Both the position numbers and the translations under genes were made by a program. Shown here piece after piece: positions 11,041 to 25,521 of a DNA stretch of 29,278 bases. Source of the DNA: Pseudomonadota bacterium (GTDB lineage Bacteria; Myxococcota; JACRCW01; JAFGSX01); NCBI GenBank assembly GCA_043821645.1, contig JBDRCO010000009.1, forward strand, positions 1-29,278. The letters are read 5' to 3'. Positions within the stretch are counted from its first letter, which is position 1. Every line of letters begins with the position of its first letter. The notes beneath the pieces were generated by a model. The model did not search any database and was not told where the DNA came from. It was given only the letters and a program-made list of their open reading frames with translations.

Positions 11041-11459
11041 CGAGATGGCGTCCCTGTGCTGGAGGTAGTTGCGACGAGAATGCGGTGTCGCCAGCGCTTG
11101 GGGAGGTGAGCGCCGAGCACCGCGATGAAAAAGGCGACGAGCAGGACCCCGGTTGCGATCGTCGGCACCGCGCGTGCGAGCGCGAGCAGGCCAAGCTTGG
11201 CGATCGTGACCCAGCCCGAGAGCTGGCGCAGCAGGTCAGGGTGCGAGGCCCACTCGTGGGCCAGCAACAGCACCCCGCTGGTCGCGGCCAGGACCCACCA
11301 CAGGCCCAAACCCGGAACCCGTCCCCCGACGAGCTGCCCACCGAGGATGGCGGCGCAGGCGGTCAGGTGTGCTGCACGCACCAGCACCGAGCCCACGCGG
11401 GCCCAGCCAGGCAGATTGCGGACACGGCCCTCGGCGGCCCGGCGATCGGTCTCGATCAT
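11037..11459 (-). CDS. Small integral membrane protein (about 4 TM), unknown function
   Basis: 140 aa, hydrophobic segments. Starts 10 nt after the porin stop and overlaps moeA by ATGA. Confidence 0.75.
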   Translation of the reverse strand: MIETDRRAAEGRVRNLPGWARVGSVLVRAAHLTACAAILGGQLVGGRVPGLGLWWVLAATSGVLLLAHEWASHPDLLRQLSGWVTIAKLGLLALARAVPTIATGVLLVAFFIAVLGAHLPKRWRHRILVATTSSTGTPSR

Positions 11460-11468
11460 GCGGCGAGT

Positions 11469-12671
11469 CTAGATCGATATTTGCAGACTGAGCAGCACGC
11501 CGTCGTCCGCCAGGTCGGGCAGGCCTGGCTCATCGGTCTGCCGCCAGATGGCGTCGAGCATCAGCCGCACCAGATCCTTGTACAGGTAGTTCACACCCAC
11601 CGTGATCTCCTGCTGGCTCACCAGCGAGCCCACCTCGTTCCACTGGCTCTGGTACCAGTCATAGCGAGCGGCGAGCTGCAGGTCGTGGTCGGCGGTCAGC
11701 GACGCGGGCAGCAGCGTACCGAGGCTGTCGCGCACGCTCCACAGCAGGCGCAGGTCCCAGCCCTCGTACAGCAGGTCGGCGCGGCCGTCGTTGTCATAGT
11801 CGTCGTCGATGCGGCCACCACCGGCGAGCCCGGCGAGGCGCAGACCCAGCACCGGGATGCGCAGGCGCAGGTCGGCCGAGTAGCTGAGCCGGTCGAGGTC
11901 GTAGACCACCCGGCCGCTGTTGAAGACCATGTTGTCGTGCTTGTTGAGGCTGGCGTGGGCCCCCACCGTGACGACGTCGAACCAGTCGTACAGCTCCAGG
12001 CGCAGGCCGTAAAAGAGCTGTGGCCCGTTGGTCAGGATGTACTGCCGCTCGCTGCTGCCGCCGATGTAGAGGTTGGCGCCGAGTCCATTGCCCGCCATGG
12101 CGAAGTAGCGAAAGCCGCCGTGCCCCAGGTCCACATCACCCTTGAGCGCCACGCCCAGATCCCGGTAGTAGCTGCGGTTGCCATAGAACAGCGACGACGT
12201 GTGCACGCCCCTGGACAGCGCGTAGTCGGCACTCACCCGGGTCAGCTGCGAGCGGTGCGCGAAGTCCAGGTCCCGGCTCAGTACCAGCCCCTCATAGGTG
12301 GTGGGGATCTTCTGCTGGCCCACCTGCACGCGCAAGCAGCGCGCCACGTGAAAGGAAGCAAAGGCGTTGAGAAGGGCGGGATTGCGCTCGAGCTTGAGCT
12401 GCACGTGCAGCCCGACGCGATCGTCGATGAGCAGGTAATCCAGCCCCGCGCGAACCTGGTGCACGGACAGACCCGTGGTCTCGGTGACGCCGAGATCTCC
12501 CGATGGGAACTGGTGCAGAGCGTCCGCCTCCTCGAGCTGCTCGTAGACGGTCGCCCACACCTGGGCATAGGCGTAGGCCTCGAGGCCGTCGGAGAAGCGG
12601 TAGGCCTGGGCCGGCACAGCCAGAATGACTGCGACCACAGCGAGCACGGTGGAGCGGACGACAGGCACCAC
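11469..12671 (-). CDS. Outer-membrane porin (OprO/OprP-like anion porin superfamily)
   Basis: GGAGG then GTG start, signal peptide ending PAQA; LLNAF...VGQQKIP...RDLGV...GNG...ARYD...GVNY motifs typical of Porin_O_P-like proteins; beta-strand C-terminus LSLQISI. Confidence 0.75.
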   Translation of the reverse strand: MVPVVRSTVLAVVAVILAVPAQAYRFSDGLEAYAYAQVWATVYEQLEEADALHQFPSGDLGVTETTGLSVHQVRAGLDYLLIDDRVGLHVQLKLERNPALLNAFASFHVARCLRVQVGQQKIPTTYEGLVLSRDLDFAHRSQLTRVSADYALSRGVHTSSLFYGNRSYYRDLGVALKGDVDLGHGGFRYFAMAGNGLGANLYIGGSSERQYILTNGPQLFYGLRLELYDWFDVVTVGAHASLNKHDNMVFNSGRVVYDLDRLSYSADLRLRIPVLGLRLAGLAGGGRIDDDYDNDGRADLLYEGWDLRLLWSVRDSLGTLLPASLTADHDLQLAARYDWYQSQWNEVGSLVSQQEITVGVNYLYKDLVRLMLDAIWRQTDEPGLPDLADDGVLLSLQISI

Positions 12672-12712
12672 GGCGCCTCCCGGTTGCTTGGATCGACGCC
12701 AGCGGGTCACGC

Positions 12713-13945
12713 TCAGGGCACCACGCCGTGTCCGTAGACCACCACCGCGTCCTGATAGATCAGGGCCCAGCCGTCGTTCTTGGCGTCGAAGTCCTCGACA
12801 CCCTCAGGCAGAGGGTCGACGCGGATGGCGACCACGCCGCGCACCATGGCGCCGGCGTTGTGGTCCTTGCTGGCGTCGTAGTCCCAGCCGTCATTGCAGG
12901 TGGTCGGCGAATAGCTGGAGCCGCGGTCAGGCCCGCCCGCCGTGCTCTGCGGCACCACTGCGCGCAGGGGCCCCTCACCGTTGATGCGGCCCGAGCTGGG
13001 ATCCAGGTTGACCGGCTGCATGGCCTCGCCCTCGCGCTGGTGCGCCAGCAGCAACCACTGCGCATCGGGGATGGCCGCACCGTCGATGAGACCTGTGGGC
13101 AACTGGTCAGGGTAGGTGACGAAGTTGCACTCAGCGTTGCCGAGGTTGTCGAGGCCAGCGTGGTAGATCCCGTCGGGGTACTGCCTCTTCACGTCATCGA
13201 TGGAGAAGGTGGTCACGTAGCCGTCGGGCGCGATCATCGACAGCCCCGTGATGGCCGTGTCGTCGAGGTTGACCCCGGCGTCCTGCAGCAGGTCGCGGAC
13301 GCGCACGCCCGTGTACTGGGCATAGTTGTCAAACTGCTGGCGGTTGGAGTTGCACAGCAGGAACTCGGTGTGCTGGGGCAGGGCCTGCAGCGCCGCCCGG
13401 GTGTAGATCCGGTTCGGGGCCACGGGCTGCCCTGGCATGCTGCCCGGATCCCCCGGGTACTTGAGGTCCGCGATCTCGGTGGCGTTGCTGTGCCCGTCGC
13501 CGTCGGAGTCCCGGTCCGCGATCTGCAGCGGCGCCCCGCGGTTGCGGCCGGCGTTCTTGTAGTCGAGGCCATAGGGATTGAGGGTCTCGGCATAGGTGGT
13601 GGGCGTGGGCTCGATGAAGATGGCCGTGCCCGGGTGCTGGATCAGGTGGCAGTAGTCGCAGGCGTTGACGTAGACCTCGCGGATCTGGCCGCTGGAGTCG
13701 TAGCTGAAGGTGTCGCCCTTGTGGCAGGTCTGGCAGTCGTCCAGGCGCGTGCCGAGAAGCGCCGGGTAGGCGGTGACCAGGTTGTTGGCGTCGAGGTCGC
13801 TCTCGTGGCCCTTGTAGGAGCGCGAGGAGAGCAGGCCCTGGTCCCTGTCCTTCGCCGTGTCACAGGCCGCCCCGGGCAGGAGCAGGAGCGAGGGCAGCAG
13901 CGCCACGAGCAGGGAGCAGCGACGGGGCCAGTGAGCTTGGATCAT
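12713..13945 (-). CDS. Diheme c-type cytochrome lipoprotein with a GEGP motif and a C-terminal sulfite-oxidase/MsrP-like domain
   Basis: Lipobox LLLPGAAC; CQTCH (13721-13735) and CDYCH (13646-13660); DSDGDG Ca-binding-like loop; LLCNSN...YTGVRVRDLL...APDGY...GEGPLRAVVP. AGAGGAAGGG before ATG 13945. Confidence 0.85.
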   Translation of the reverse strand: MIQAHWPRRCSLLVALLPSLLLLPGAACDTAKDRDQGLLSSRSYKGHESDLDANNLVTAYPALLGTRLDDCQTCHKGDTFSYDSSGQIREVYVNACDYCHLIQHPGTAIFIEPTPTTYAETLNPYGLDYKNAGRNRGAPLQIADRDSDGDGHSNATEIADLKYPGDPGSMPGQPVAPNRIYTRAALQALPQHTEFLLCNSNRQQFDNYAQYTGVRVRDLLQDAGVNLDDTAITGLSMIAPDGYVTTFSIDDVKRQYPDGIYHAGLDNLGNAECNFVTYPDQLPTGLIDGAAIPDAQWLLLAHQREGEAMQPVNLDPSSGRINGEGPLRAVVPQSTAGGPDRGSSYSPTTCNDGWDYDASKDHNAGAMVRGVVAIRVDPLPEGVEDFDAKNDGWALIYQDAVVVYGHGVVP

Positions 13946-13955
13946 GTCCCTTCCT

Positions 13956-14642
13956 CTATTGTTGCGGCCGGGCGCAGGGAGCATCGTCGACGATGTTCCC
14001 ATCCCGGAGTTCAAGGCGCCGATGCGCCAGGTGTTGTACAAGATCGTGGTCGTGGGTGGCGAGCAGCACCGCGGAGCCAGCGGCGGCGAGGGTGCGCACG
14101 GTCTCCATCACGGCCAGACGGTGCGGTGCGTCCAGGTCGCGAGTCACCTCGTCGAGCAAGAGCAGTTCAGGGCGCAGCACCAGCGCCCTGGCCACGGCCA
14201 CCGCCGTTCGCTGACCACCAGACAGGCGCGCGACATCGCTGCGTGCCAGGTCTGTCAGGGCCAGGGCTGACAGCACCTGCGACACACGTGCCGAACGTTC
14301 GGGGCCGGGCACATGCCGCAGGCCCAGGCCCCAGCTCAGGTTGCGCTCGACGCTGCCCCTGAGCAGGTAGGGATCCTGCAGGACCAGCACCGCGCGCTGA
14401 CGAAAGGCGACCGGTGCCGGAGCCGGTCCGCCGTGCAGCGATCCATCGTCGAGGACGACCGTTCCCTCGGCGACGTCGCACAGTCCGGCGCAAGTCAGCA
14501 GCAAGCTGCTCTTGCCGCTGCCGTTGGGGCCGCACACGGCGGTGATGGAGCCGGCGGTGAGCTCGAGCGCGGGCACCTGCAGCACGAAGCCCGCGCCTCG
14601 CTTCACCTGCAGCGCCTGGCAGCGGAGCAGGGGCGCGCTCAT
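13956..14642 (-). CDS. tupC: Tungstate ABC transporter ATP-binding subunit
   Basis: Walker A GPNGSGKS, signature LSGGQR, Walker B LLLLDE, H-loop ATHD. ATG 14642 overlaps the tupB stop (ATGA). Confidence 0.88.
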   Translation of the reverse strand: MSAPLLRCQALQVKRGAGFVLQVPALELTAGSITAVCGPNGSGKSSLLLTCAGLCDVAEGTVVLDDGSLHGGPAPAPVAFRQRAVLVLQDPYLLRGSVERNLSWGLGLRHVPGPERSARVSQVLSALALTDLARSDVARLSGGQRTAVAVARALVLRPELLLLDEVTRDLDAPHRLAVMETVRTLAAAGSAVLLATHDHDLVQHLAHRRLELRDGNIVDDAPCARPQQ

Positions 14643-15334
14643 GACGCCTTCTCGACCCGCGGCTGGCGCCAGGCCAGCAGCAGGTTGACGCCCAGGGCGA
14701 TGATCAGGAGCACCACGCCCATAGCCACACCGCGGGCGAACTCGCCCTTGCCGGTCTCGAAGGCGATGCCGGTGGTGATGTTGCGGGTGTGACCGCGGAT
14801 GTTGCCACCCAGCAGCATGGCCGCGCCGACCTCGGTGAACACCCGGCCAAAGCCCGCAGCGACGGCGGCCACCAGTGCGGCGGCGTGCTCCTGGGCGACC
14901 AGCAGCGACGCACGCCAGCGACTGGCGCCCAGGCTCAGGGCGGTGAGCTGAATGCGCGGATCGGCCTGCTCCAGGGCGCTGCTGGCAAAACCGATCATGA
15001 TGGGCGTGGCGAGCACGGCCTGGCCCAGCACCATGCCCGGGATCGCGTACAGCAGCCCGAGATCTCCGAGCAAGCCCTGGCGACAAAGCAACCCGTACAG
15101 CACCAGCCCGACCAGCACTGTGGGCAGCGACATCGAGGCCTGCACCAGGGTGCGCAGGGCGTGGCGTCCGCGAAAGCGGCCCAGGCCCAGGGCCACGCCC
15201 AACGGCAGGGCGATGAGCGCGCTCAGCACGCAGGCGGTGAGCGACACGCGCAGGGACACGCCTATGGGGTGCCAGACATCGACGTCCAGCGACAGCAGCA
15301 TGCGAAAGCCGTCGACGAGGCCTGAGAGGATCAT
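14639..15334 (-). CDS. tupB: Tungstate ABC transporter permease
   Basis: SLPTVLVGL, GLLGDLGLLY, GFGRVFTEVGAAMLLGGNIRGHTRNITTGIAFETGKGEF, typical of TupB. Confidence 0.93.
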   Translation of the reverse strand: MILSGLVDGFRMLLSLDVDVWHPIGVSLRVSLTACVLSALIALPLGVALGLGRFRGRHALRTLVQASMSLPTVLVGLVLYGLLCRQGLLGDLGLLYAIPGMVLGQAVLATPIMIGFASSALEQADPRIQLTALSLGASRWRASLLVAQEHAAALVAAVAAGFGRVFTEVGAAMLLGGNIRGHTRNITTGIAFETGKGEFARGVAMGVVLLIIALGVNLLLAWRQPRVEKAS

Positions 15335-15367
15335 CGCCTGACCTGCCCCTCCCGGGTGGCTCCGGGT

Positions 15368-16252
15368 TCACGGCATCGAGGGCGCACTCGCGGCGGCGGG
15401 CTCGGTGCTGCCAGATTTCTTCACCGGATCACAGCCCGACACCAGGTGAAACAACGGCTTTTTCTGGGGCTGAAAACCCGCGATCAGCTCGAGTCCTGTT
15501 TTCGAACTCAGCCAGGCCACCAGGGCCAGGGCCGCCACGTGGTTGACGCCCGGGTGCTTGACCGGATCCACGGCCATGACGCTGTACAGGTTGTCCAGGC
15601 GCGGGTCGCCCTGCACCAGCACCTCGAGCTGCAGCTGGCTGGCGGCCGTATCGTAGGTGGCGCGGTCGCTCAGGCAGTAGGCCTGCTTCTCGCTCGCCAC
15701 GCCCAGGGTCATGCGCATGCCCTGGCCGGCTTCCAGGTACCAGGCGCCCTGGGGCGTGATGCCGGCCTGCTGCCACAGCGCCTGCTCCTTCATGTGGGTG
15801 CCGGACTTGTCGCCGCGCGAAACAAAGACCGCCTGCTTGTCGGCGATGATCTTGAGGGCGGCCGCGGCGTCGCTACCACCGCGCAGGCCCGCGGGATCGG
15901 TCGACGGACCCAGCAGCACGAAGTCGTTCTTCATCAGGGTGCGGCGATCCGTGCCGTGACCCTCGGCCATGAACGCCGCCTCAGCCTCGGGCGCATGCAC
16001 CAGCACCGCGTCGACGTCACCACGTGCGGCCAGGGCCAGAGCCTGGCCGGTGCCCACGGCCATCACCTGCACCTGGAGGCCGGTGCGCTGCTCGAAGGGT
16101 GGCAGCAGGACCTGGAGCAAGCCGGTGTTGTCCACCGAGGTGGTGGTGGCCAGGCGCAGGGGGGCGGGGGGCGCCTGTTTCTGTGCACAGCCGAGCACAG
16201 CCAGCCCGGTGACGACGAGAATCGCGAACCTCGCGACCGCAGAATGTGTCAT
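15368..16252 (-). CDS. tupA: Tungstate-binding lipoprotein
   Basis: Lipobox AVLGC; LRLATTTSVDNTGLL (TTTS tungstate signature), VGTGQAL, DAVLVHAP, SRGDKSGTH, LSDRATY. Start 16252 or 16261. Confidence 0.94.
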   Translation of the reverse strand: MTHSAVARFAILVVTGLAVLGCAQKQAPPAPLRLATTTSVDNTGLLQVLLPPFEQRTGLQVQVMAVGTGQALALAARGDVDAVLVHAPEAEAAFMAEGHGTDRRTLMKNDFVLLGPSTDPAGLRGGSDAAAALKIIADKQAVFVSRGDKSGTHMKEQALWQQAGITPQGAWYLEAGQGMRMTLGVASEKQAYCLSDRATYDTAASQLQLEVLVQGDPRLDNLYSVMAVDPVKHPGVNHVAALALVAWLSSKTGLELIAGFQPQKKPLFHLVSGCDPVKKSGSTEPAAASAPSMP

Positions 16253-16306
16253 GACGTCCATTTCGCTTCTCACATGCGAGTGGCGACAGCAAAGCGTTGA
16301 GCCCGC

Positions 16307-18421
16307 CTATGCGCTCGACGCCGCGCCCGGGGCGTTCGCATCGAGCTCCCGGTCGCAACGCAGGCAGCGCGATGCCTCGCACCGGGCGACCTCCTCGGTC
16401 ACGACCTGTTCGACCTCGATCACCGAGGTCCGGCGCTCGACTGCGGAGAGGTGTGGCACGCTGAGGCGCGCTGCGCAGACTGTGTCTTTTCGGATGGGCT
16501 GCGCAGGCGAGGGCCCCAGGTCCCTTCCGGCGCGGGCGCCGTCTCCGGGCTGGGCCAGCGCCTCGCCGACGAGGAAACGCTCGATCGTATGAGCGGCCCG
16601 CTTGCCGGCGGCGATGGCCTCGATCACGGTGCTGGGGCCGGAGACCGCGTCGCCTCCGGCGAAGACCCCTGGGCGGCGAGTGGCGTGGGTCCGCAGATCG
16701 GCCTCGATGGCTCCCCAGTCGTTGGCCAGGGTCTCCCGCGCGTCGGCGCCCGGTGCGCGCAGGCTGTCCAGGTCAGGCTTCTCGCTCACCGCCACGATCA
16801 AGGTGTCGAGCGGCACCAGGTGCTCGGTGCCCGCCATGGGCACGGGGCGGCGGCGACCACTGCGGTCGGGCGGGCCGAGTTCGTTCTTCAAGCAGGTGAC
16901 GCCGACCAGAGCACCGGCGGCCGTCTCGACCTTGACCGGGGTCAACAGGCAGCGCAGCTCGGCGCCCTCGTCGACCGCAGCATCGATCTCCTCGGCAAAG
17001 GCCGGCATCTCCTCGCGGGTGCGGCGGTACAGAATGGTCACCTGCGACACCTCGGGCTGTCTGAGTGCGATGCGCGCCGCGTCGATGGCCGAGTTGCCGC
17101 CGCCTATGATGCCGACCCGGCCCTTCGCCAGGCTGGTCCCCTTCAGGTTGAACTCGCTGAGGAAGCGCAGCGAGGGGATCACCCCCGACGCGTCCTCGCC
17201 CTTGATGTTCAGCGGCAGACTGCGGTTGGACCCGAAAGCGAGGAACACGGCGGCATGGCCGTCCTCGAGCAGTCCGTCGACGGTGATGTCGCTGCCCAGC
17301 CGCACACCCGTCTTCACGGTGATGCGCGGGTCCAGCAGCGCGGCAATCTCGCGGTCGAGCACGTCGCGGGGGAGGCGGTACGACGGGATCGCGTGCCGCA
17401 GCATGCCCCCGAGCTGCTCGTTCTGCTCGAACACGGACACCCGGAAGCCGCGCAGGGCGAGCAGGTGCGCCGCGCTCAGCCCGGCCGGCCCCCCACCGAC
17501 GATCGCCACCCGCTGCTCCTTGTCGTCCGCGGCGCGCTCGGGCTGGTACACGCCGGGATCGATGGTGTCGGTGACAAAGCGCTTGAGGGCGCGGATGGCG
17601 ACCGGCGAGCCCTCCACCGTACCCAGCCGGCAGCTGCGCTCGCAGCGGTGATCGCATACCCGGGCGCACACCGACGGGAAGGGGTTGGGATCGCGAATGG
17701 CGAGGTAGGCCTGCTCGTACTCGCCGCGCTCGATGTGTGCGACGTAGCGCCAGGCCTCGGTGCCTATGGGGCAGGCCAGCTGACAGGGCGCGGTCAGCGG
17801 ATCCAGCCCCGGTGGCCCCACCAGCTTGTCGGTGATGAGCGCGTCGACCACGGCGCTCGCCTGGTCGCTGGCAAAGAACTTTTCGATCGCCTCGACCTGG
17901 CGCCTGGGTGGCTGCAGCTTCTCGCGCTGTACCAGCTTGATGTAGGGGACCAGCTGGTTCAGTCGCTCCACCCCTTTCTCGACGGCCGAGGGCTCGTCCG
18001 CTGTGCCGTGGCGCCACGGCCCGAGCGCTTTCACCTGCTTTGCAAACTCGGTCATGATCTCGGCGTAGCGAGTTCCCTCGGAGGCGCCGACCCACTCGAT
18101 GCGCAGCCGCTCGGGCGCGACGCCAACGCGGTCGAGCAGCATCTTGCCCAGGTGCACGTTGCACAGGGCATCGAAGTTGCCCTCGGTGACGTAGTGGCAT
18201 TCGCCGGGCCAGCAGCCGGCCACGATCACGCCGTCAGCCCCGTGGGCAAAGGCGCGCAGCACGAAGGACAGGTCCACCCGTCCCGTGCACATCACGCGTA
18301 TGATCCGTATCTCGGTCGCGTACTGTTGTCTGGAGACCCCAGACAGGTCTGCTGCCGAGTACGCTCACCAGTGGCACAAGAAGGCCACGATGCGCGGTGA
18401 GAACTCGAGTTCCGTCGTCAT
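16307..18421 (-). CDS. bamF: Selenocysteine-containing BamF/MvhD-like Fe-S domain fused to a GltD/NfnB-like FAD/NAD(P) oxidoreductase (704 aa)
   Basis: GAGAGGAAACC then ATG 18421: MTTELEFSPRIVAFLCHW-U(TGA 18365-18367)-AYSAADLSGVSRQQYATEIRIIRVMCTGRVD...GCWPGECHY. Then PCQLACP, NPFPSVCARVCDHRCERSC, VGGGPAG, IGGGNSAID, YRRTREEMPA, FAGGD and C-terminal EASRCLRC. Confidence 0.9.
18318..18367 (-). promoter_or_regulatory. Putative bacterial SECIS hairpin immediately 3' of the Sec UGA
   Basis: mRNA reads UGA GCGUACU CGGCAGCAGACC UGUCUGG GGUCU CCAGACA AC AGUACGC. Lower stem GCGUACU/AGUACGC and upper stem UGUCUGG/CCAGACA with a G-starting loop (alternative pairing AGACC/GGUCU). Confidence 0.75.
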
Positions 18422-18456
18422 GGTTTCCTCTCACTTCCCTCGAACGTCAACGTGGA

Positions 18457-18571
18457 TGGTGTTGATTCATCTTGTTGTGGGGGGCCCAGGCGACACTTTT
18501 TTCCGAGCCTGCGAGGACAAAAAGAGTCGCCGGTGAAGGCGGGGCCCCACAACCTGTTCGAATCAACACCA
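18457..18571. repeat. Long nested inverted repeat in the bamE-bamF spacer
   Basis: 18457-18468 tggtgttgattc / 18560-18571 gaatcaacacca (12/12); 18474-18482 gttgtgggg / 18545-18553 ccccacaac (9/9); 18489-18501 ggcgacacttttt / 18519-18531 aaaaagagtcgcc (12/13). Confidence 0.85.
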
Positions 18572-18598
18572 CGTCGTGCACGTGTGGGCCTGCTCTTC

Positions 18599-21500
18599 CT
18601 ACGCCCGCATCAGCGCGGCGTCGATCTGGGCGTTGAGCTCATCGTCGGTGAAGTGCTTGAGCTGGATCGCATGGGTCGCGCACTTGGCGTTGCACAGGCC
18701 ATCGCCCTTGCACAGCACCGGGTTCACCTTGGCCTTCTTTCCCCTCGGCGTGTCCACCAGAGTGATCGCCGCGTAGGTGCAGGCCGTGATGCAGGCACCG
18801 CAGGACACGCAGGCGTCCTCGTCGACCAGGCACACCGAGCCCGAGGCCTTGACCGTGTCCTGGGACAGCAGGGTGGCAGCCCGACCGGCCGCGCCGTAGG
18901 CCTGGCCCAGGGTCTCGGTGAGGTGCTTGGGGTAGTGCGCGCTGCCGCACAGAAAGACCCCGTCGGCGGCGAAGTCCACCGGCCGCAGCTTGACGTGGGC
19001 CTCCTGGTAAAAACCATCGGGATTGGTGGCCACCTTGAACAGCTTGACCACCTCGGCGCTGCTGGCCGCCGGCACCACGGCTGCGGACAGCACCAGCAGG
19101 TCTGCGTCGAGCTCCAGTCGTTTTTGCAGCACCGGGTCGGGCACGCGAACCTTGAGCACCGATCGCCCGTCCTCGCCTGTGCCGGGCTCGACCTCGGGTC
19201 CGTCGTCGGGCACGAAGCGCACGAAGCGCACGTGCTGCTCGGCGGCTGCTCGGTAGTGGTCCTCCTGAAAGCCGTAGGTGCGCATGTCCCTGAACAGGAT
19301 GTCGATGCTCAGCTCGGGCCTGAGCGCCTTGAGCGCCAGGGCGTTCTTCACTGCCTGGCCACAGCACACGCGGGCGCAGTAGTTGTGGTCGGCGTTGCGG
19401 CAGCCCACGCACTGGATCATCACCAGGCTCTGGGCCTGCTGCAGCTCCGGCGCCCCGTCGGCCAGGCGCTGCTCCAGCTCGAGCTGGGTCAGCACCCGGG
19501 GATCCTCGCCGTACAGGTACTCGTGGGGTCTGTACTCGTCGGCGCCCGTGGCCAGGATGGCCGCGCCGTGCTCGATCACCTGCTCGCCGCTCTCGTGCAG
19601 GACCGTGGATACCCAGTTGCCGATGTAGCCGGTGACCTGGCGCAGCGTGGCCTGGTGGTACACGCGGATCAACTTGTGCTGGTAGACCTTGCGGATCAGG
19701 CCCTGCAGGTAGGCCTGCACGTCGAGACCCTCGAGAGTGCGGTGCAGCCGTCGCGCCATGCCACCCAGGTCTTTTTCCTTCTCGACCAGGTGCACCTCGA
19801 AGCCCTGCTCGGCCAGACCCAGCGCCGCGGTCATCCCTGCCACGCCGCCGCCCACCACCAGGGTGGCCTTGTTCACCGGCAGGTCGAACTCCTGCAGGGC
19901 CTCGAGGCCGCTGGCGCGGGCCACGGACATGCGCACGATGTCCATGGCCTTCTGCGTGGCCTCCTCCTTTTGCTTGGAGTGCACCCACGAGCAGTGCTCG
20001 CGGATGTTGGCCATGTCGAAGAAATACTGGTTGATGCCGCCCTCGCGCAGGGTGTCGCGAAACAGCGGCTCGTGGGTCTTGGGCGTGCAGGCGGCCACGC
20101 ACACGCGATTGAGCTTCTTCTCGCGAATGGTCTTCGAGATCTGCTCGGCGGCGTCGGTGGAGCAGATGAACAGCCCCTCCTCGGCGTGCACCACGTGGTC
20201 GAGGCCCTTGGCGTACTCGACCACCGAGGGCACGTTGACCACGCGGCCGATGTTGGCGCCGCAGTGACAGGCGAACACCCCGACCCGCGGTTCCTCCTCG
20301 CTGACGTCGCGCTCGGGCGGGTAGATGCGCTCCTTGGCCAGCTTGCCGCGGCGGTAGCCAAGCAGCTCGCCGACCAGCGCATGGGTGCCGCTGGCGGTCA
20401 TCACCGACTCGGGGATGTCCATGGGGCCGCAAAAGGCGCCGCTCACGAACACGCCCGGACGCGAGGTGGCGATGGGGTTGGTGGGCGGGGTCTGGCAAAA
20501 GCCATGGGCGTCGAGCGCGATGCCGAAGCGGTCGGCGATGGCACGCGCGTCGCGCGGCGGAATCAGGCCCACGCCCAGCACCACCAGGTCGAAGGTGTCT
20601 TCCTTCACGCCGACGTCGTCGGTGGCGTAGCGAATGGTGACGTTGTGGGTGTCGGGGTCCTCGCCGCTGACCGCGACGTAGCTGCGCACGAAGGTCACCC
20701 CGCTGAGCTTCTCGGCGCGCTGGTAGAAGCGCTCGAAGTCCTTGCCGTAGGAGCGGATGTCGTTGTGGAAGATCGTCGCCTCGGCGTCGGCGTCGTGGTC
20801 CTTGGTCAGGATCACCTGCTTCTGGATGTAAGAGCAGCACACCGACGAGCAGTAGCTGTTCGCGCCCTCGAGGATCTGGCGCGAGCCCACGCAGTGTATC
20901 CAGGCGATCTTGTGCGGGTGCTTCTTGTCCGAGGGCCTGAGGATCTCGCCCTCGTGAGGCCCCGTGGCGCACAGCAGGCGCTCGAAGTCGAGGCTGGTGA
21001 CGACGTTGGGATAGGTCCCGTAGCCGTAGTCACCGCGCGCCGCCGGATCGAAGGTCGAGATGCCCGGCGACAGCACGATGGCGCCGACCTTGAGGGTTCG
21101 TTTCTCGGGCTTCTGGTGCAGGTCGATCGCGTTGTTCTTGCAGGCGCCGACGCAGATCGAGCACTTCTCGTCCTGCAGGTACAGGCACTTGTCGTCGATG
21201 TAGGGCACCAGGGGCACGGCCTGCGAGAAGTAGATGTGCACGGCCTTGTTGTCGCCCAGGTTCTGGTTGAAGGGATCCGGGATCTTGACCGGGCAGTACT
21301 CGACGCAGACCGTGCAGCCCGTGCACAGGTCCTCGTTGACGTAGCGGGGCTTCTTGGTCAGCGAGACCTCGAAGTCGCCGGCCTGGCCCGCGACGCTGTC
21401 GACCTCGGTGTAGGTCAGGATCTCGATGTTGGGGTGGCGGTCGCACTCGATGAACTTGGGTGACTCGATGCACATCGAGCAGTCGTTGGTGGGGAAGGTC

Positions 21501-21655
21501 TTGTCGAGCTGCGCCATCTTGCCGCCGATGGTGGGCGCCTTCTCGACCAAGAAGACCTTGAAGCCGGCGGTGGCGAGATCCAGCGCGGCCTGGATGCCGC
21601 TGATGCCGCCGCCGACCACCAGCACGTCGCCGAAGTTCTGCTGGGCCTCGCTCAT
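18599..21655 (-). CDS. bamE: HdrA-like flavo-iron-sulfur subunit of class II benzoyl-CoA reductase (1018 aa)
   Basis: ATG 21655 overlaps the bamD stop. VVGGGISG, AQLDKTFPTNDCSMC, HCVGSR...YCSSVCC, CHCGANI, ACTP, NIREHCSWVH, second FAD motif VGGGVAG, EAHVKLRPVDF, ferredoxin CVSCGAC/CKGDGLC; lies after bamBCD. Confidence 0.93.
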   Translation of the reverse strand: MSEAQQNFGDVLVVGGGISGIQAALDLATAGFKVFLVEKAPTIGGKMAQLDKTFPTNDCSMCIESPKFIECDRHPNIEILTYTEVDSVAGQAGDFEVSLTKKPRYVNEDLCTGCTVCVEYCPVKIPDPFNQNLGDNKAVHIYFSQAVPLVPYIDDKCLYLQDEKCSICVGACKNNAIDLHQKPEKRTLKVGAIVLSPGISTFDPAARGDYGYGTYPNVVTSLDFERLLCATGPHEGEILRPSDKKHPHKIAWIHCVGSRQILEGANSYCSSVCCSYIQKQVILTKDHDADAEATIFHNDIRSYGKDFERFYQRAEKLSGVTFVRSYVAVSGEDPDTHNVTIRYATDDVGVKEDTFDLVVLGVGLIPPRDARAIADRFGIALDAHGFCQTPPTNPIATSRPGVFVSGAFCGPMDIPESVMTASGTHALVGELLGYRRGKLAKERIYPPERDVSEEEPRVGVFACHCGANIGRVVNVPSVVEYAKGLDHVVHAEEGLFICSTDAAEQISKTIREKKLNRVCVAACTPKTHEPLFRDTLREGGINQYFFDMANIREHCSWVHSKQKEEATQKAMDIVRMSVARASGLEALQEFDLPVNKATLVVGGGVAGMTAALGLAEQGFEVHLVEKEKDLGGMARRLHRTLEGLDVQAYLQGLIRKVYQHKLIRVYHQATLRQVTGYIGNWVSTVLHESGEQVIEHGAAILATGADEYRPHEYLYGEDPRVLTQLELEQRLADGAPELQQAQSLVMIQCVGCRNADHNYCARVCCGQAVKNALALKALRPELSIDILFRDMRTYGFQEDHYRAAAEQHVRFVRFVPDDGPEVEPGTGEDGRSVLKVRVPDPVLQKRLELDADLLVLSAAVVPAASSAEVVKLFKVATNPDGFYQEAHVKLRPVDFAADGVFLCGSAHYPKHLTETLGQAYGAAGRAATLLSQDTVKASGSVCLVDEDACVSCGACITACTYAAITLVDTPRGKKAKVNPVLCKGDGLCNAKCATHAIQLKHFTDDELNAQIDAALMRA

Positions 21656-22824
21656 GGGCGGACCTCCAGCGCGGCCTGCAGCACTTCGGTGATGTCCTGG
21701 ATCTGCAGCGGGTCGTCCTCGGCGAGAGACAGCCGGGCCTCCTCGAACATGCTGATGCAGTAGGGGCAGCTGGTGACCAGCACCTCGGCACCGACCTGCT
21801 TGGCCTGGGCGATGCGCAGGTTCGAGAAGCGCTCCTGTTTGGGAGTCTCCATCCAGATGCGCCCGCCACCGCCGCCGCAGCACAGGCTGTTCTCGTGGTG
21901 GTCGCGCATCTCCCGGCGCTGCAGCCCCGGCACCGCGTCGAGCACCGCGCGCGGCGCATCGAACACCTTGTTGTGCCGGCCCAGGTAGCAAGGGTCGTGG
22001 TAGGTGACGGTGCGCGGGAACTCCCCGGCGAGCTTGAGCCGGCCGCTGGCCAGCAGCTCGGCCAGCAGCTCGGTCATGTGCACGACCTCGAAGTGCACCA
22101 TGAACTCGGGGTACTCGTTCTTGAAGGTGTGCAGGCAGTGCGGCGACGAGACCAGGATCTTCTTCACCCCGCGGTCGATGAAGGTCTTGATGTTGTCCTT
22201 GGCCAGGTTCCTGAACACCGCCTCGTTGCCTGTCTTGCGGATGCTCTCGCCGCAGCAGTTCTCCTGGTTGCCGAGGATGCCGAAGGACACCCCGGCCTTG
22301 TGCAGCAGCTCGACGGTGGCCCGGGCCACTTTGCGCATGCGCGGGTCGTAGCTGTAATAGCAGCCGACGAAGTACAGCAGCTCCATGTCGTCGGTAAAGG
22401 GCTTGACGTCCAGACCCGCGGCCCAGGCGTCGCGCTGCTCGCGCTCCTCGTTCAACGGGTTGCCCTGGGTGCCCAGGCTGGCGGCGGCGCTGCGCACCCC
22501 GCGGGCGCTGCCCGGGAACACGTCGTACTCGGCGGCGACCCGGCGGATGGCGACCCCGACCTCGATCTGCTCGACGCCACGCGGGCATTGCGCCGGGCAG
22601 GTACCGCAGGTGGTGCAGCGCCAGACATCCTCGAGTTCGATCTCGGCCAGGCCGTAGCTGGCCTCGCGCACGATGCGGCGGATGCTGAAGTCGCGCACGC
22701 GGTTCCAGGGGCAGACCACGTCGCACTTGCCACACTGGTAGCAGTACTTGAAAGCCTCGCCGCCGGCCTTGCGGATCTCCTGGGTGATCTCAGCGAGAGG
22801 GGCAACAGTCTCCAAGTTCTTCAC
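21652..22824 (-). CDS. bamD: HdrD/GlpC-like Fe-S (CCG domain) subunit
   Basis: CYQCGKCDVVCP and CTTCGTCPAQCP ferredoxin motifs; YFVGC, NCCGE, SPHC, YHDPCYLGR, CCGGGGG, SCPYC. AAGGGAG then GTG 22824. Confidence 0.92.
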   Translation of the reverse strand: MKNLETVAPLAEITQEIRKAGGEAFKYCYQCGKCDVVCPWNRVRDFSIRRIVREASYGLAEIELEDVWRCTTCGTCPAQCPRGVEQIEVGVAIRRVAAEYDVFPGSARGVRSAAASLGTQGNPLNEEREQRDAWAAGLDVKPFTDDMELLYFVGCYYSYDPRMRKVARATVELLHKAGVSFGILGNQENCCGESIRKTGNEAVFRNLAKDNIKTFIDRGVKKILVSSPHCLHTFKNEYPEFMVHFEVVHMTELLAELLASGRLKLAGEFPRTVTYHDPCYLGRHNKVFDAPRAVLDAVPGLQRREMRDHHENSLCCGGGGGRIWMETPKQERFSNLRIAQAKQVGAEVLVTSCPYCISMFEEARLSLAEDDPLQIQDITEVLQAALEVRP

Positions 22825-23002
22825 CAGCTCCCTTGCGGTTCGAATCAACCAGGCGCAGGCGATTGCAGGCTGCACCCGTTGCACGTGGCTCGGGGTCCTG
22901 TCACCTCACCTCCCCCACCGTGCTCGTCCCTGCGCGCGGCGGGGGGCCCCCTGCTCGGCGCCACCCCTCGCGTCCGGGGCAGCACCGACGAGCATTCCCA
23001 CG

Positions 23003-23545
23003 CTACTTCTTGTTCATGCGCTTCATGGCGTCGCGCACGGTGTCCCAGCCATGCTTGTTGGCCAGGGCTTCGAGGCCCACGTCGACGTCCTCGGGGGCCT
23101 CGTCGTGCACGACCTCCTCCTCGCGCTCCTCGTAGATCAGGGCTTCGGCCAGGCACCACTGCACGCACATGGGTGTGTCCAGGGAGGGATCGCTCTCGCA
23201 CATGTCGCACTTGAGGGGCAGGTCCGAGTCGGGCTCCTTGAACAGGTCCCGCGACGGACACGAGGCCCGGCAGAACGCGCACTCGCCGTACTTCTTGCCG
23301 TCGATGGTGTACTGGTCGCGCCCCGCGCACTCGGCCGCCGTGTACTCGCCGGCGTAGACCGGGATGTAGATGTCGGCCAGGGGGTCGCGCACCACCCGGA
23401 TGCGCGAGCGCGCCGGGTTGTTGCAGCTGTAGGCCGGCGACGCGTGCATGGACGAGCAGATCACCTCGCAGGCCTGGCAACCGTTGCACTTGTCGACGTC
23501 GATCTTGATGGTCTTGATCGTCTTCTTGGTCTTTTGGGACTTCAC
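23003..23545 (-). CDS. bamC: Class II benzoyl-CoA reductase 4Fe-4S subunit
   Basis: IKIDVDKCNGCQACEVICS, NPARSRIRV, AGEYTAAECAGRD, ECAFCRASCPSRDLFKEPDSDLPLKCDMC, CVQWC, matching recalled BamC. GTG start overlaps the bamB stop (GTGA). Confidence 0.93.
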   Translation of the reverse strand: MKSQKTKKTIKTIKIDVDKCNGCQACEVICSSMHASPAYSCNNPARSRIRVVRDPLADIYIPVYAGEYTAAECAGRDQYTIDGKKYGECAFCRASCPSRDLFKEPDSDLPLKCDMCESDPSLDTPMCVQWCLAEALIYEEREEEVVHDEAPEDVDVGLEALANKHGWDTVRDAMKRMNKK

Positions 23546-25521
23546 GACGCGCTGCCCTCGTCCTCTTTGAGGATGCCCCGCTGCAAGAAGTCCTTGGCCA
23601 CGTAGTCCAGGTCCAGCTCGTGGAGCGTCTTGCGGGTGGGGATGCCCTCGAGGTTCCAGCCCTTGAAGGTGTAGTACGCGTCGAGCAGCTTCTGCTCGAG
23701 TTCGGGGAAGCGCCGCTTCCAGTGGTCCTCGGGCGGCGCCTCGTCGACACGTCGCATGCCCAGGCGGATGTTGTTGGCGCGCACCAGGTTGCGGTTGCGC
23801 CGGGTCAGGTGCACCAGCGCGTCCTCGTCGAGGTCGAGGCCAGCACCCGACGAGATCAGGGCCGGCAGGTTGTGGATGTGAAAGGGCGGCTTGAGCGGAA
23901 ACGACGACAGGCCCGCGCACATGCCGGTGCTGTCATCGATGTAGTGCATCTGCTCCTGCCAGTTGACGATCTCGGAGCTGGTCTGCGCATCGGGGTAGTT
24001 GGGGATGGAGAACTCTCCACGGTTCTCCCAGTCCTCGAACCACTTCTTGAACCGCTCGTCGGGCACCTGCGGCCAGTTTGCGGTGAAGGCCTCGCGCTCG
24101 GCGCGGGTGTCGAAGGGTGCTTGCGGAAAGTTGCCCTCGATCTGCGTGATGTTGATCTTCTCGCCCGTCGAGTACATCAGGAAGTACATGGGGTTGAGCA
24201 TGCCCAGCTTGAGCGGCAGCTGCTCGGTCTTCTTGATGTTGTTGTGGGCGTAGACCTCGGCGCCCTTGCCTATCTTCTGCCCCGCCCAGTAGGTGCCGTC
24301 GGCGAGCACGTCGCCGATGCCCTCGCGGTGCACGATCTTGTCGAGCAGCCAGTAAAAGGCGCCCTCGTTGTCCAGGGGCATGCCCGGGAAGTCGTCGCGG
24401 GTCAGGATGTTGGCCTCGAGCAGCTCCAGCGCGTAGGCCATGGTCTGCGGCGCGCTGAAGGCGTCGACGCCGTGCTCGGTGGCCTTCTGGGCCATGCGCA
24501 TGCCGAAGTTCAGGTCCGACATGGCGCCCATGGTGTAGGTGAGCTTGCTGAAGCACTTCATCATGTACGAGCACATGCGCGTGTCGACGGAGATGGCAGC
24601 GCCGCACTTCATGGGGCAGTTGTGGCAACTCAGGAGTCGCGTGCGCATCTTCTCCATCGTGCCCGTCCAGGCTTGCTGGATCTCATCTGTCCAGAAACCC
24701 TTGCGGCGATGGCGGGCGTTGCCCCAGGCGAAGTTCTCGGTGTGCCACTTCTCGTCGTGGATCGCCATCTCCTGGGGCGAGCCGAGCCCGGCCAGGATGG
24801 GCATGACGCCGGGGATGGGCTTGTCGTTGCGATCCTTGATAAAGGCCAGCGCCTCGTTGCACAGCTTCATGAACTCGGCCGGACGCGCGATGTTGATGTC
24901 CTTGCTGCCCTTGACCGCGATGGCCTTGAGCTTCTTGTCGCCCATGACCGCGCCGAGGCCGAGGCGGCTGGCGCTGGAGCGGCCCTGCTCGATGCTGGCG
25001 AAGAACACCCGGTTCTCGCCGGCGAGGCCTATCGAGGCCACCGCGGCGTTGGGCTCTTCGAGCTCCTGGCGGATCAGCTCCGCGGTCTCCATGGTGCCCA
25101 GTCCGCGCAGCCGGGACGCATCGCGAAGCTCGACCTTGTCGTCGTGTATCCACAGGTAGACCATCTCGGGCGAGCGGCCGCGCAGGATGATCTTGTCGTA
25201 GCCCGCATGCTTGAGCTCGGGGCCGAAGAAGCCGCCCATCATCGAGAAGGCGAACAGCCGCGTCTGCGGCGAGATGGCGGACACGATGGTGCGGTTGCAG
25301 CCTGGGGCGGGCGTGCCGGCGAGCAGGCCGGTGCCGAAGATGAGCAGGTTGTCCGGCGAGAAGGGCTCGGTCTCGGGCGGCACGCGGTCCCACATCAACT
25401 TGGCGTTGGTGCCCAGGCCGCCCAGGTGCAGCGCGGTGAGGCGCGGGTCCGTGGGCACCCGCTCGATGTTGCCGCGGCTGAGGTCGACCTCGAGATTGAA
25501 CCCTGTCTCGGCGTAGCGCAT
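23542..25521 (-). CDS. bamB: Class II (tungsten-pterin, AOR family) benzoyl-CoA reductase catalytic subunit (659 aa)
   Basis: Starts MRYAETG..EVDL; LGGLGTNAK, GRSSASR, MPILAGLGSPQEMAIHDEKWHTENF, SCHNCPMKC, YMMKCF, EKINITQIEG, CAGLSSFPLKPP. These blocks closely match my recollection of Geobacter metallireducens BamB rather than generic AOR. Confidence 0.93.
   Translation of the reverse strand: MRYAETGFNLEVDLSRGNIERVPTDPRLTALHLGGLGTNAKLMWDRVPPETEPFSPDNLLIFGTGLLAGTPAPGCNRTIVSAISPQTRLFAFSMMGGFFGPELKHAGYDKIILRGRSPEMVYLWIHDDKVELRDASRLRGLGTMETAELIRQELEEPNAAVASIGLAGENRVFFASIEQGRSSASRLGLGAVMGDKKLKAIAVKGSKDINIARPAEFMKLCNEALAFIKDRNDKPIPGVMPILAGLGSPQEMAIHDEKWHTENFAWGNARHRRKGFWTDEIQQAWTGTMEKMRTRLLSCHNCPMKCGAAISVDTRMCSYMMKCFSKLTYTMGAMSDLNFGMRMAQKATEHGVDAFSAPQTMAYALELLEANILTRDDFPGMPLDNEGAFYWLLDKIVHREGIGDVLADGTYWAGQKIGKGAEVYAHNNIKKTEQLPLKLGMLNPMYFLMYSTGEKINITQIEGNFPQAPFDTRAEREAFTANWPQVPDERFKKWFEDWENRGEFSIPNYPDAQTSSEIVNWQEQMHYIDDSTGMCAGLSSFPLKPPFHIHNLPALISSGAGLDLDEDALVHLTRRNRNLVRANNIRLGMRRVDEAPPEDHWKRRFPELEQKLLDAYYTFKGWNLEGIPTRKTLHELDLDYVAKDFLQRGILKEDEGSAS

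Follow-up and report, generated by a model that had tools for sequence, protein, structure and literature searches.

The reaction of class II benzoyl-CoA reductase is among the most strongly reducing in biology. The closest described relative of the system considered here is the Bam[(BC)2DEFGHI]2 complex of Geobacter metallireducens (4Z3W is the structure of BamBC), for which structure and assays make BamGHI the input and the step from BamD to an electron-transferring flavoprotein (ETF) the high-potential output. The complex couples two bifurcation-type modules; electrons leave the last BamI cluster for the C-terminal ferredoxin-like clusters of BamE and travel by way of the [2Fe-2S] cluster of BamF towards the bifurcating flavin adenine dinucleotide (FAD), and the winged helix-turn-helix (HTH) of BamF interfaces with BamI (bioRxiv 10.64898/2026.04.10.717634). 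Here we describe a bam cluster in which bamF continues, in a single reading frame, into a GltD-like flavoprotein module. It lies on a stretch of 29,278 bases, hereafter the window, that forms the entire contig C9 (G+C about 68%) of a binned genome (7.07 Mb in 140 contigs, 94.7% complete, 3.95% contaminated). Our account is inferred from sequence and concerns a known enzyme class.

The window cluster shares with the Geobacter one the gene order bamB-C-D-E-F; Cys59, Cys62, the conserved lysine and the C-terminal ferredoxin-like clusters of BamE; and, in BamF, selenocysteine (Sec) 19, the MvhD domain and the second domain. It differs in that the operon contains no bamGHI, and the docking winged helix of BamF has given way to a module of about 500 amino acids (aa) with predicted sites for NADPH, FAD and two [4Fe-4S] clusters. 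NADPH would be the only donor, in place of the NADH and reduced ferredoxin that the Geobacter enzyme confurcates. In addition, bamE has no in-frame stop codon, so the window BamE contains no Sec. Because the BamGHI arm and the docking winged helix were not found, we treat the locus as a variant of the eight-subunit Bam type and not as a member of it.

The fused module also has relatives elsewhere. In NfnA and StnC (9BOV/9BP5, PMC11829005; 9N5U, PMC12018979; 8OH5/8OH9, PMC10482914) the corresponding domain is part of a formate-dehydrogenase/NuoG-like subunit of about 1170 aa and feeds a HydBC-type flavin mononucleotide bifurcation site, whereas the window module is attached to an adaptor of the MvhD type and would deliver electrons to an FAD bifurcation site of the HdrA type. 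The likeness extends over the whole module (296-332 bits), includes the cluster cysteines, the lysine of 'LKRF' and the motif GGGNxAxD...YRRTxEEMPA, and reaches into the C-terminal tail up to 'CLxC'; the window polypeptide stops just after this CxxC, whereas NfnA and StnC continue from it into more cluster domains. HdrA proteins with an inserted GltD-type module share the idea of a direct NAD(P)H port on an HdrA/MvhD bifurcation machine, but there the module sits beside a ferredoxin domain and has the motif GxGxxG, read by the authors as NAD-type. In the window it is the MvhD-like subunit of a benzoyl-CoA reductase that carries the module, at its C-terminus, and the motif is GxGxxA, which is read as NADP-type (PMC12054007). 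The nearest module relatives outside the fusion family, with the same NADPH-site motif, are found in NuoE - NuoF::GltD (about 1060 aa) - NuoG-N operons, in which the module is carried by a NuoF/HydB-like subunit, not by BamF, and there is no bam context. To our knowledge, no member of this operon type has been characterised, although no search was aimed at this architecture.

A bam cluster with a bamF-gltD fusion gene

Five genes, all on the minus strand, lie within positions 16307-25521 of the window. They are listed below together with the parts of the fusion gene.

23545-25521, minus strand: bamB, 659 aa, tungsten-pterin catalytic subunit of the aldehyde:ferredoxin oxidoreductase (AOR) family, with AFOR_N and AFOR_C domains
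23006-23545, minus strand: bamC, 180 aa, iron-sulphur electron-transfer subunit with weak Fer4 matches
21655-22884, minus strand: bamD, up to 410 aa, HdrD/HdrBC-like, with a Fer4 dicluster and two CCG domains
18602-21655, minus strand: bamE, 1018 aa, double HdrA-like flavoprotein and proposed bifurcation site, with a C-terminal Fer4 dicluster
16310-18421, minus strand: bamF-gltD fusion gene, 704 codons including one UGA, in a single frame
17807-18391, minus strand: BamF core, consisting of the MvhD/FlpD domain (aa 11-134) and the second BamF domain (aa 135-205)
16310-17806, minus strand: NfnL/StnC/GltD-type module (aa 206-704), with two [4Fe-4S] motifs and predicted FAD and NADP(H) sites
18365-18367, minus strand: in-frame TGA at codon 19, the UGA being read as selenocysteine (Sec19 of BamF)
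18305-18363, apical stem 18330-18342, minus strand: hairpin resembling a selenocysteine insertion sequence (SECIS), just downstream of the UGA

BamB aligns along its length with the solved BamB of G. metallireducens (4Z3W_A; 1073.3 bits, residues 1-652 against 1-651), and the runner-up among its PDB matches, the AOR 1AOR, scores 199.6 bits. The genome has no second BamB-like gene; its next AOR homologue is 26% identical. BamC is 50-80% identical to the product of the gene following bamB in other bam loci, and BamD is 53-73% identical to the BamD of other loci; the start of bamD is uncertain, as homologues align only from residue 13-24 or so. BamE consists of two Pyr_redox_2/FAD halves (938 bits with the HdrA2 model), and its residues C59, C62 and K279 and the cysteines of the C-terminal clusters are invariant in all 32 aligned BamE sequences. 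Measured against 78 bamB loci, BamC-E are 50-86% identical to their counterparts, and the gene order corresponds as well. No NuoE/F/G-like gene is present on the 29-kb contig. Judged by these comparisons, the cluster is a genuine class II (Bam-type) benzoyl-CoA reductase cluster. An earlier note on this DNA had reported bamB, C, D and E in canonical order followed by one 704-aa fusion, an operon running into tupA past no NuoE/F/G-like genes, and the motifs GGGNSA and YRR. The domain searches and the 4Z3W_A match bear out the gene order and coordinates, a tupA-like gene does follow after 36 nucleotides, and both motifs are present in the fusion protein.

The fusion protein contains an FlpD/MvhD domain at aa 11-134 (FlpD, 158.7 bits), Fer4_20 at aa 210-287 (77 bits) and Pyr_redox_2 at aa 304-606 (79.7 bits), and the tail of the module ends in CxxC. 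We examined the junction in an alignment of the window protein with seven other fusions, six canonical BamF sequences and five BamF sequences of a third kind. All kinds align nearly without gaps from residue 1 to about 205, ending in ...L(I/V)ADKL, and diverge beyond this point; tblastn matches to canonical BamF cover residues 1-200 of the fusion at 57-63% identity. In canonical BamF, of about 255 aa, the C-terminus is a winged helix of the ArsR type (HTH_5 matches of 36.6 and 31.5 bits against a cut-off of 22). A ferredoxin domain with 2x[4Fe-4S] takes this position in the third kind (270-297 aa), and the window kind continues beyond residue 205 or so into the flavoprotein module of about 500 aa. 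No HTH domain matched the window's fusion protein at E<=0.01. Since the swap occurs at the junction where the docking winged helix sits, the fused module would occupy the site that normally holds the BamGHI arm.

A product of 704 aa requires that the in-frame TGA at codon 19 is read as selenocysteine, a feature that the earlier note did not mention. Standard open reading frame (ORF) calling yields only 662 aa for the fusion gene, and the public protein collection for the contig has a 582-aa call (P0006). Codon 19 aligns with the C/U position of the motif FLC(H/N)W(U/C)AY, and the residue in Geobacter BamF is named Sec19 (bioRxiv 10.64898/2026.04.10.717634). It is TGA in 49 of 52 BamF genes of bamB loci and Cys in the other 3, a count that leaves out one further locus (L039) misread by our script; TGA is found at codon 19 in 95 distinct BamF loci. 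The genome encodes the selenocysteine machinery: tRNA-Sec on contig C16, SelB (256 bits; cut-off, 242) and SelA (531 bits; cut-off, 268). By alignment, TGA codon 19 is the conserved BamF selenocysteine.

The SECIS-like hairpin has a minimum free energy of -27.5 kcal/mol (z = -2.6), and 5 of 200 shuffled sequences fold equally well. Of its four apical pairs, three never vary among the 42 BamF loci aligned, and the fourth is retained in 40 of them; one sequence has a change on both sides of a pair, and the alignment yields no covariation energy term. Arg31 is located inside the stem, which forces the codon AGA, used for 9 of the 372 arginines in 12 window genes. As the pairs are essentially invariant and so show no covariation, the support for the hairpin comes from conservation and from the rare AGA codon.

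Could the fusion gene be an artefact or a pseudogene, with the TGA a real stop or the fusion mis-assembled? Standard ORF calling does stop at the TGA, and the database holds the 582-aa call only. Against this, TGA recurs at the same codon in nearly all BamF genes (49/52), the selenocysteine machinery is present and the hairpin is conserved; the fused ORF is also found on seven independent contigs and in 27 protein clusters, as described below. We regard an artefact as extremely improbable. An assembly chimera in particular was rejected, because the same single ORF occurs on the seven independent metagenome contigs and in the 27 protein clusters.

The fused module, its relatives and its recurrence

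The best solved relative of the module is 9BOV_A, the NfnA subunit of Caldicellulosiruptor NfnABC (331.5 bits, residues 102-567), followed by the NfnA of archaeal Nfn-Bfu (9N5U_A, 309.1 bits) and StnC of Sporomusa ovata (8OH5_C, 295.6 bits). NfnB proteins of the NfnSL type score 247.3 bits (4YLF_B, T. maritima) and 218.7 bits (5JCA_L), and GltD about 190 bits. The cluster cysteines are retained in the alignments, as are the lysine of 'LKRF', which is a ligand of the first cluster in NfnA, and the NADPH-site stretch GGGN(S/T)A.D...YRRT.EEMPA. The sequence GGGNSAIDAARIALRQPEVSQVTILYRR is present in the module of the window's fusion protein, which also contains the FAD motif VGGGPAG and the NADPH motif GGGNSA...YRR, and GxGxxA...YRR is kept in all eight fusion proteins. 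These similarities point to a module of the NfnL/StnC/GltD type that would bind FAD and two [4Fe-4S] clusters and read NADPH.

In NfnABC, NADPH reduces the NfnL-like FAD and single electrons are then relayed via clusters A7 and A6; this FAD is located at the end of the chain and was judged incompatible with bifurcation (PMC11829005). By homology to this domain, the module is most simply an NADPH dehydrogenase that injects single electrons. The earlier note had suggested a second, NfnB-like bifurcating flavin. In such a mechanism the module FAD would split the NADPH electron pair in the manner of NfnB, one electron going to the [4Fe-4S] clusters at low potential and the other to the [2Fe-2S] cluster of BamF at higher potential. 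The module is indeed homologous to NfnB of NfnSL (4YLF_B and 5JCA_L), a [2Fe-2S] centre is present in the same polypeptide (in the MvhD domain), and two bifurcation-type modules in one benzoyl-CoA reductase complex have a precedent in Geobacter (10.64898/2026.04.10.717634). However, the module scores are higher against the Bfu-type NfnA and StnC proteins (the three top matches given above), in which the FAD is terminal and non-bifurcating, and the [2Fe-2S] cluster of Geobacter BamF relays electrons toward the BamE FAD and is not a high-potential exit (10.64898/2026.04.10.717634). An NfnS/NfnA-like FAD/[2Fe-2S] partner is encoded neither in the operon nor elsewhere on the contig, to which the search for NfnS was confined. 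We therefore find no support for the suggestion and consider a second, Nfn-type bifurcation in the module unlikely.

Searching metagenome contigs with the fusion protein gave 80 loci, which were sorted by tblastn with the window proteins as follows.

7 loci: the whole fusion with the same junction, 63-67% identical (L091, L093, L094, L098, L104, L105, L151)
17 loci: NuoE - NuoF::GltD - NuoG-N operons
2 loci: bam clusters with BamH fused to a GltD-like domain (L134, L159)
2 loci: HdrA-like genes with an inserted GltD (L120, L131)
52 loci: ordinary BamF loci

In all six metagenome contigs that show sequence upstream of the fusion, bamE directly precedes it, and bamB-C-D-E are visible in three fusion contigs (L091, L094, L104). 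None of the four fusion contigs with at least 5 kb downstream (L091, L098, L104, L105) carries NuoEFG-like genes. A protein search retrieved 27 clusters with the architecture FlpD + Fer4_20 + Pyr_redox_2, at 62-74% identity. The 78 species-representative bamB loci comprise 28 with BamF and NuoEFG, 19 with BamF and no NuoF or GltD within at least 2.5 kb downstream, 5 in which the sequence stops too soon past BamF and 26 in which BamF is not reached; the fusion is found in none of the 47 informative loci. Among the matches listed for 400 other genomes of the same phylum (including G195, unpublished), none spans both halves of the protein; 327 weaker matches lie outside that list. Among reference genomes the fusion is rare. 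The nearest bamB loci belong to metagenome-assembled genomes (MAGs) of varied labels, including Myxococcales and Polyangiaceae.

The history of the fusion was examined with FastTree trees, calculated from our own alignments and quoted with local supports. In the tree of BamF residues 1-205 the fusion cores (the window and six others; L105 lacks the N-terminus and was left out) form one clade with a support of 0.97, nested among winged-helix BamF. The BamE tree places the window with three bamGHI-type loci (0.97) and L151 with two such loci (0.89), and gives five other fusion loci a clade of their own (1.00). A single lineage of fusion-type bam clusters is rejected by the BamE tree, even though the BamF cores are one clade. 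Given the single clade of cores and the position of the window BamE among bamGHI-type loci, we consider it probable that the fusion gene had a single origin and has been exchanged between bam clusters; alternatively, the BamE signal is misleading.

Two bam clusters (L134:4219-7038 and L159:6444-9515) contain bamE, bamF and bamG, followed by a BamH that runs without a stop into a GltD-like domain, and then bamI. The GltD-like domain is 39-42% identical to the module and has the motif GGG(D/N)VA...YRR. Here the enzyme would have acquired an NADPH-type module a second time, independently.

The third kind of BamF, with the C-terminal ferredoxin domain, is encoded just after bamE (L020, L021, L038, L040, L042, L049, L051, L054, L059, L060, L067-L073, L079, L085, L086). 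The motif CxxCxxCxxxCP is present in 21 sequences, which fall into at least two clades on the BamF core tree. In the 19 of these loci with at least 2.5 kb downstream, no bamGHI was found in that stretch. One Thermoleophilia MAG (L062:17144-18516) has bamF in tandem, a ferredoxin-type gene (278 aa) and a winged-helix-type gene (255 aa), followed by bamGHI.

NuoF::GltD proteins are 51-57% identical to the fusion over its residues 193-693 or so, and 50-59% identical over the module among the protein clusters. Their operons (L090, L092, L095-L103, L106-L111, L143) resemble a rearranged Stn/NfnABC-type transhydrogenase, and ORFs of this type, about 1065-1071 aa in length, also occur in genomes of the same phylum. 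At two loci (L120:9527-13984 and L131:7084-9954) an HdrA-like frame is interrupted by a GltD-like domain that is 45% identical to the module; these genes resemble the archaeal 'type III HdrA' (PMC12054007), and L120 has an MvhD-like gene nearby. The genome of the window itself contains, on contig C81 (L010), another pair of HdrA-like genes (19639-23195), with a C-terminal match of the MvhD-like kind, and about 8 kb from it a GltD-like gene (9864-11552) that is 37-39% identical to the module.

Electron input to the reductase

Given canonical BamB-E and a BamF in which the docking helix is swapped for an NADPH module, we read the locus as encoding a class II (tungsten-dependent, ATP-independent) reductase of a five-subunit kind that is fed by NADPH and has a single bifurcation site, at BamE. 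We regard this reading as moderately probable. A five-subunit variant wired to NADP(H) had been put forward in the earlier note; the bam cluster, the site of the swap, the recurrence and the motif conserved in 8 of 8 fusions speak for it, and a gene trio on contig C23, discussed below, qualifies it.

In such an enzyme BamB and BamC would have their canonical roles as the catalytic tungsten-pterin subunit and the iron-sulphur wire, BamD would be the HdrD-like high-potential exit, and BamE the fused double HdrA with the bifurcating FAD. BamF would keep its Sec-containing MvhD domain and its second domain, with a covalent NfnL/StnC-type module in place of the winged helix. NADPH would transfer a hydride to the module FAD, and single electrons would travel from there through the two [4Fe-4S] clusters to the usual delivery site of BamI's last cluster, namely the C-terminal ferredoxin-like clusters of BamE followed by the [2Fe-2S]/Sec site of BamF. 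The window BamE keeps the cysteines of these C-terminal clusters, the electron acceptors of BamI in Geobacter. The electrons would then arrive at the bifurcating FAD of BamE, the low-potential electron continuing through BamC to the tungsten site, where benzoyl-CoA would be reduced to cyclohexa-1,5-diene-1-carbonyl-CoA, and the high-potential electron leaving through BamD for a soluble acceptor, ETF for example, and finally quinone. One ETF pair is encoded in the genome. There would be no confurcation of NADH and ferredoxin in the window complex. Co-folding of BamE residues 590-1018 with fusion residues 136-704 gave a score of 0.00 (mark, 0.32), which counts neither way on binding.

A stronger version of this reading is that the reductase is ferredoxin-independent and uses NADPH only, that the lone HdrA-type bifurcation at BamE suffices to reach about -620 mV, that the confurcation arm is exchangeable and that the C-terminus of BamF is a socket for three plugs: the winged helix for BamGHI, the 2x[4Fe-4S] domain or the NADPH module. 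This we propose tentatively, as somewhat more likely wrong than right.

The module might also be an electron exit, NADP+ being the high-potential acceptor of the BamE bifurcation, a part that an older model gives to NAD+ at BamGHI, and low-potential donors such as ferredoxin entering elsewhere. An older model with ferredoxin as the donor and NAD(P)+ as the high-potential acceptor is repeated in a review (PMC12016498), GltD/NfnL modules are reversible in transhydrogenases, and the 2-oxoacid:ferredoxin oxidoreductases (OFORs) of the genome could reduce ferredoxin. The 2026 structure and assays, however, make BamGHI the input and BamD-to-ETF the output, and the fusion is at the BamGHI position; moreover, unlike in ferredoxin-type BamF, no alternative ferredoxin-docking module is evident in the operon. 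An exit role is improbable in our view, and we return to the module as an NADPH entry.

For the rest of the genome, gene calls come from a heuristic based on GC3 (G+C at third codon positions), not from a gene finder. Two Complex1_51K genes were found, one on C72 (447 aa, complex I type) and one on C23. The latter is part of a trio encoding NuoE-like (152 aa), NuoF-like (637 aa) and NuoG-N-like (276 aa) proteins (C23:179009-184872, L009), directly after a four-subunit OFOR. Within 30 related genomes, the closest relatives of the C23 NuoF-like protein, located in G002, G006, G023, G016 and G013, are 57-59% identical (52-56% by tblastn). BamB was found only in G023 among these five, and oxidoreductase subunits precede the trio in 5 of 6 loci of these relatives, including those in G006, G016 and G013. 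As the OFOR linkage recurs in relatives where BamB was not found, we judge the C23 trio to be an oxidoreductase-linked module of its own and not bamGHI. The claim that bamGHI has been replaced thus stands insofar as no bam-linked NuoEFG genes exist in the genome and the docking helix is gone, with the reservation that there is one NuoEFG-like trio on C23.

Several points weigh against an NADPH-fed enzyme with a single bifurcation site, and some of them concern this trio. The identity of the C23 NuoF-like protein to canonical BamH is about 50%, and against thin outgroups (NuoF::GltD and complex I) it clusters with 51 BamH sequences (support, 0.985); although it lies outside the 51 BamH sequences on a long branch, that split has a support of only 0.24. 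Furthermore, strain NaphS2 has bamB-F and bamG-I in separate clusters (PMC2988823), and for this reason we keep as a rival that the trio supplies BamGHI in trans, the module being an extra NADPH entry like BamH::GltD and not a replacement. The adjacent OFOR could make reduced ferredoxin, which is used by Geobacter BamGH, and bam clusters with BamH fused to a GltD-like domain do exist (L134, L159). But the winged helix that docks BamI is missing from the window BamF; the trio has relatives closer to it than BamH, which adjoin an OFOR at 5 of 6 loci and are present in genomes with no BamB found; the long branch sets its NuoF-like protein apart; and NuoEFG is absent from the fusion-type contigs with at least 5 kb downstream. 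Supply in trans from C23 seems to us quite unlikely.

Other points on the same side are of a more general nature. NADPH use, cofactor content and the electron path are drawn from homology, and the direction of flow and the subunit stoichiometry are likewise predictions. The window and the other fusion loci are not brought together on the BamE tree, and their history is therefore more complex than a single lineage. Whole-genome statements, those on pathway context included, depend on the binning and on the incompleteness of the genome. The energetics are tighter than in Geobacter. The potential of NADPH is about -320 mV. For benzoyl-CoA a value of -622 mV is given (10.64898/2026.04.10.717634). 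By our own arithmetic, for standard conditions and with NADPH as the sole donor, the high-potential acceptor must be at or above about -20 mV; the partner could be somewhat lower if the NADPH pool is highly reduced. In the downstream pathway, the best match to dienoyl-CoA hydratase (Dch) scores 256.7 bits, under the cut-off of 292.5, and no match in the genome reaches the cut-off for benzoate-CoA ligase (best, 249 bits; cut-off, 375).

The missing benzoate-CoA ligase equivalog would also fit an enzyme that acts on another aryl-CoA, such as a substituted benzoyl-CoA, and several organisms have multiple BamB paralogues of unclear substrate (PMC5109826, PMC4148979). Here, though, BamB is the sole one in the genome and matches the solved benzoyl-CoA reductase subunit over its full length (1073.3 bits), and two enzymes of the benzoyl-CoA pathway score above their cut-offs: Oah (578 bits; cut-off, 464) and Had (441 bits; cut-off, 339), both encoded on contig C87 among thiolases and acyl-CoA dehydrogenases. 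A substrate other than benzoyl-CoA is distinctly unlikely, and benzoyl-CoA is the probable substrate of the proposed NADPH-fed enzyme.

Neither an MvhD/BamF-GltD fusion within a bam cluster nor the three-way modularity of the BamF C-terminus turned up in the full-text literature searched; subscription papers on Bam and preprint supplements lie mostly outside it, and a prior mention is possible. If our reading is correct, the input module of the enzyme is exchangeable, and the locus offers a natural and direct test of whether ferredoxin confurcation and the BamGHI arm are needed. It would suggest a simpler way of powering a very difficult reduction, and a smaller complex with a cheap soluble donor would lend itself to heterologous expression and to mechanistic studies. 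Such organisms would be misjudged in gene surveys of anoxic aromatic degradation whose pipelines demand bamGHI or cut bamF at the UGA, and the type of BamF C-terminus would serve as a simple marker from which to predict what donor a bam cluster uses.

Neighbouring genes

The genes downstream of the fusion in the window are as follows.

15368-16273, minus strand: tupA-like gene, 36 nucleotides after the fusion gene (TupA model, 213.6 bits, below the cut-off of 400)
13956-16273, minus strand: tupA-like gene, tupB-like gene and ABC ATPase gene (PBP_like_2, BPD_transp_1 and ABC_tran domains)
7846-11040, minus strand: two moeA genes and a PBP_like domain, for metal insertion into the pterin cofactor (from context)

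The match to the TupB model (190.2 bits) is also below its cut-off (320). From the domains present, the three transporter-like genes probably serve tungstate uptake. Between them and moeA, at 11469-14041, there are genes for a GEGP-motif dihaem protein (447.8 bits, above the cut-off) and a porin-like protein. The domains MoeA_N, MoCF_biosynth and MoeA_C are found twice, and PBP_like scores 249.5 bits. The second moeA ORF (8349-10070) overlaps the PBP_like ORF (7846-8862, the C-terminal part of PRK14498) in a different frame; this may be a frameshifted MoeA-PBP fusion, or simply an overlap of an unusual kind.

In one of the metagenome fusion contigs, the fusion gene is followed immediately, and on its own strand, by a gene of the DsrC/TusE family (L104:12092-12478; 93.6 bits), and beyond that by Oah-like, Had-like, TetR and xanthine-dehydrogenase-family (FAD_binding_5 and molybdopterin-binding) genes. 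Another contig of the window's genome contains a gene with a domain of myxobacterial gliding-motility proteins.

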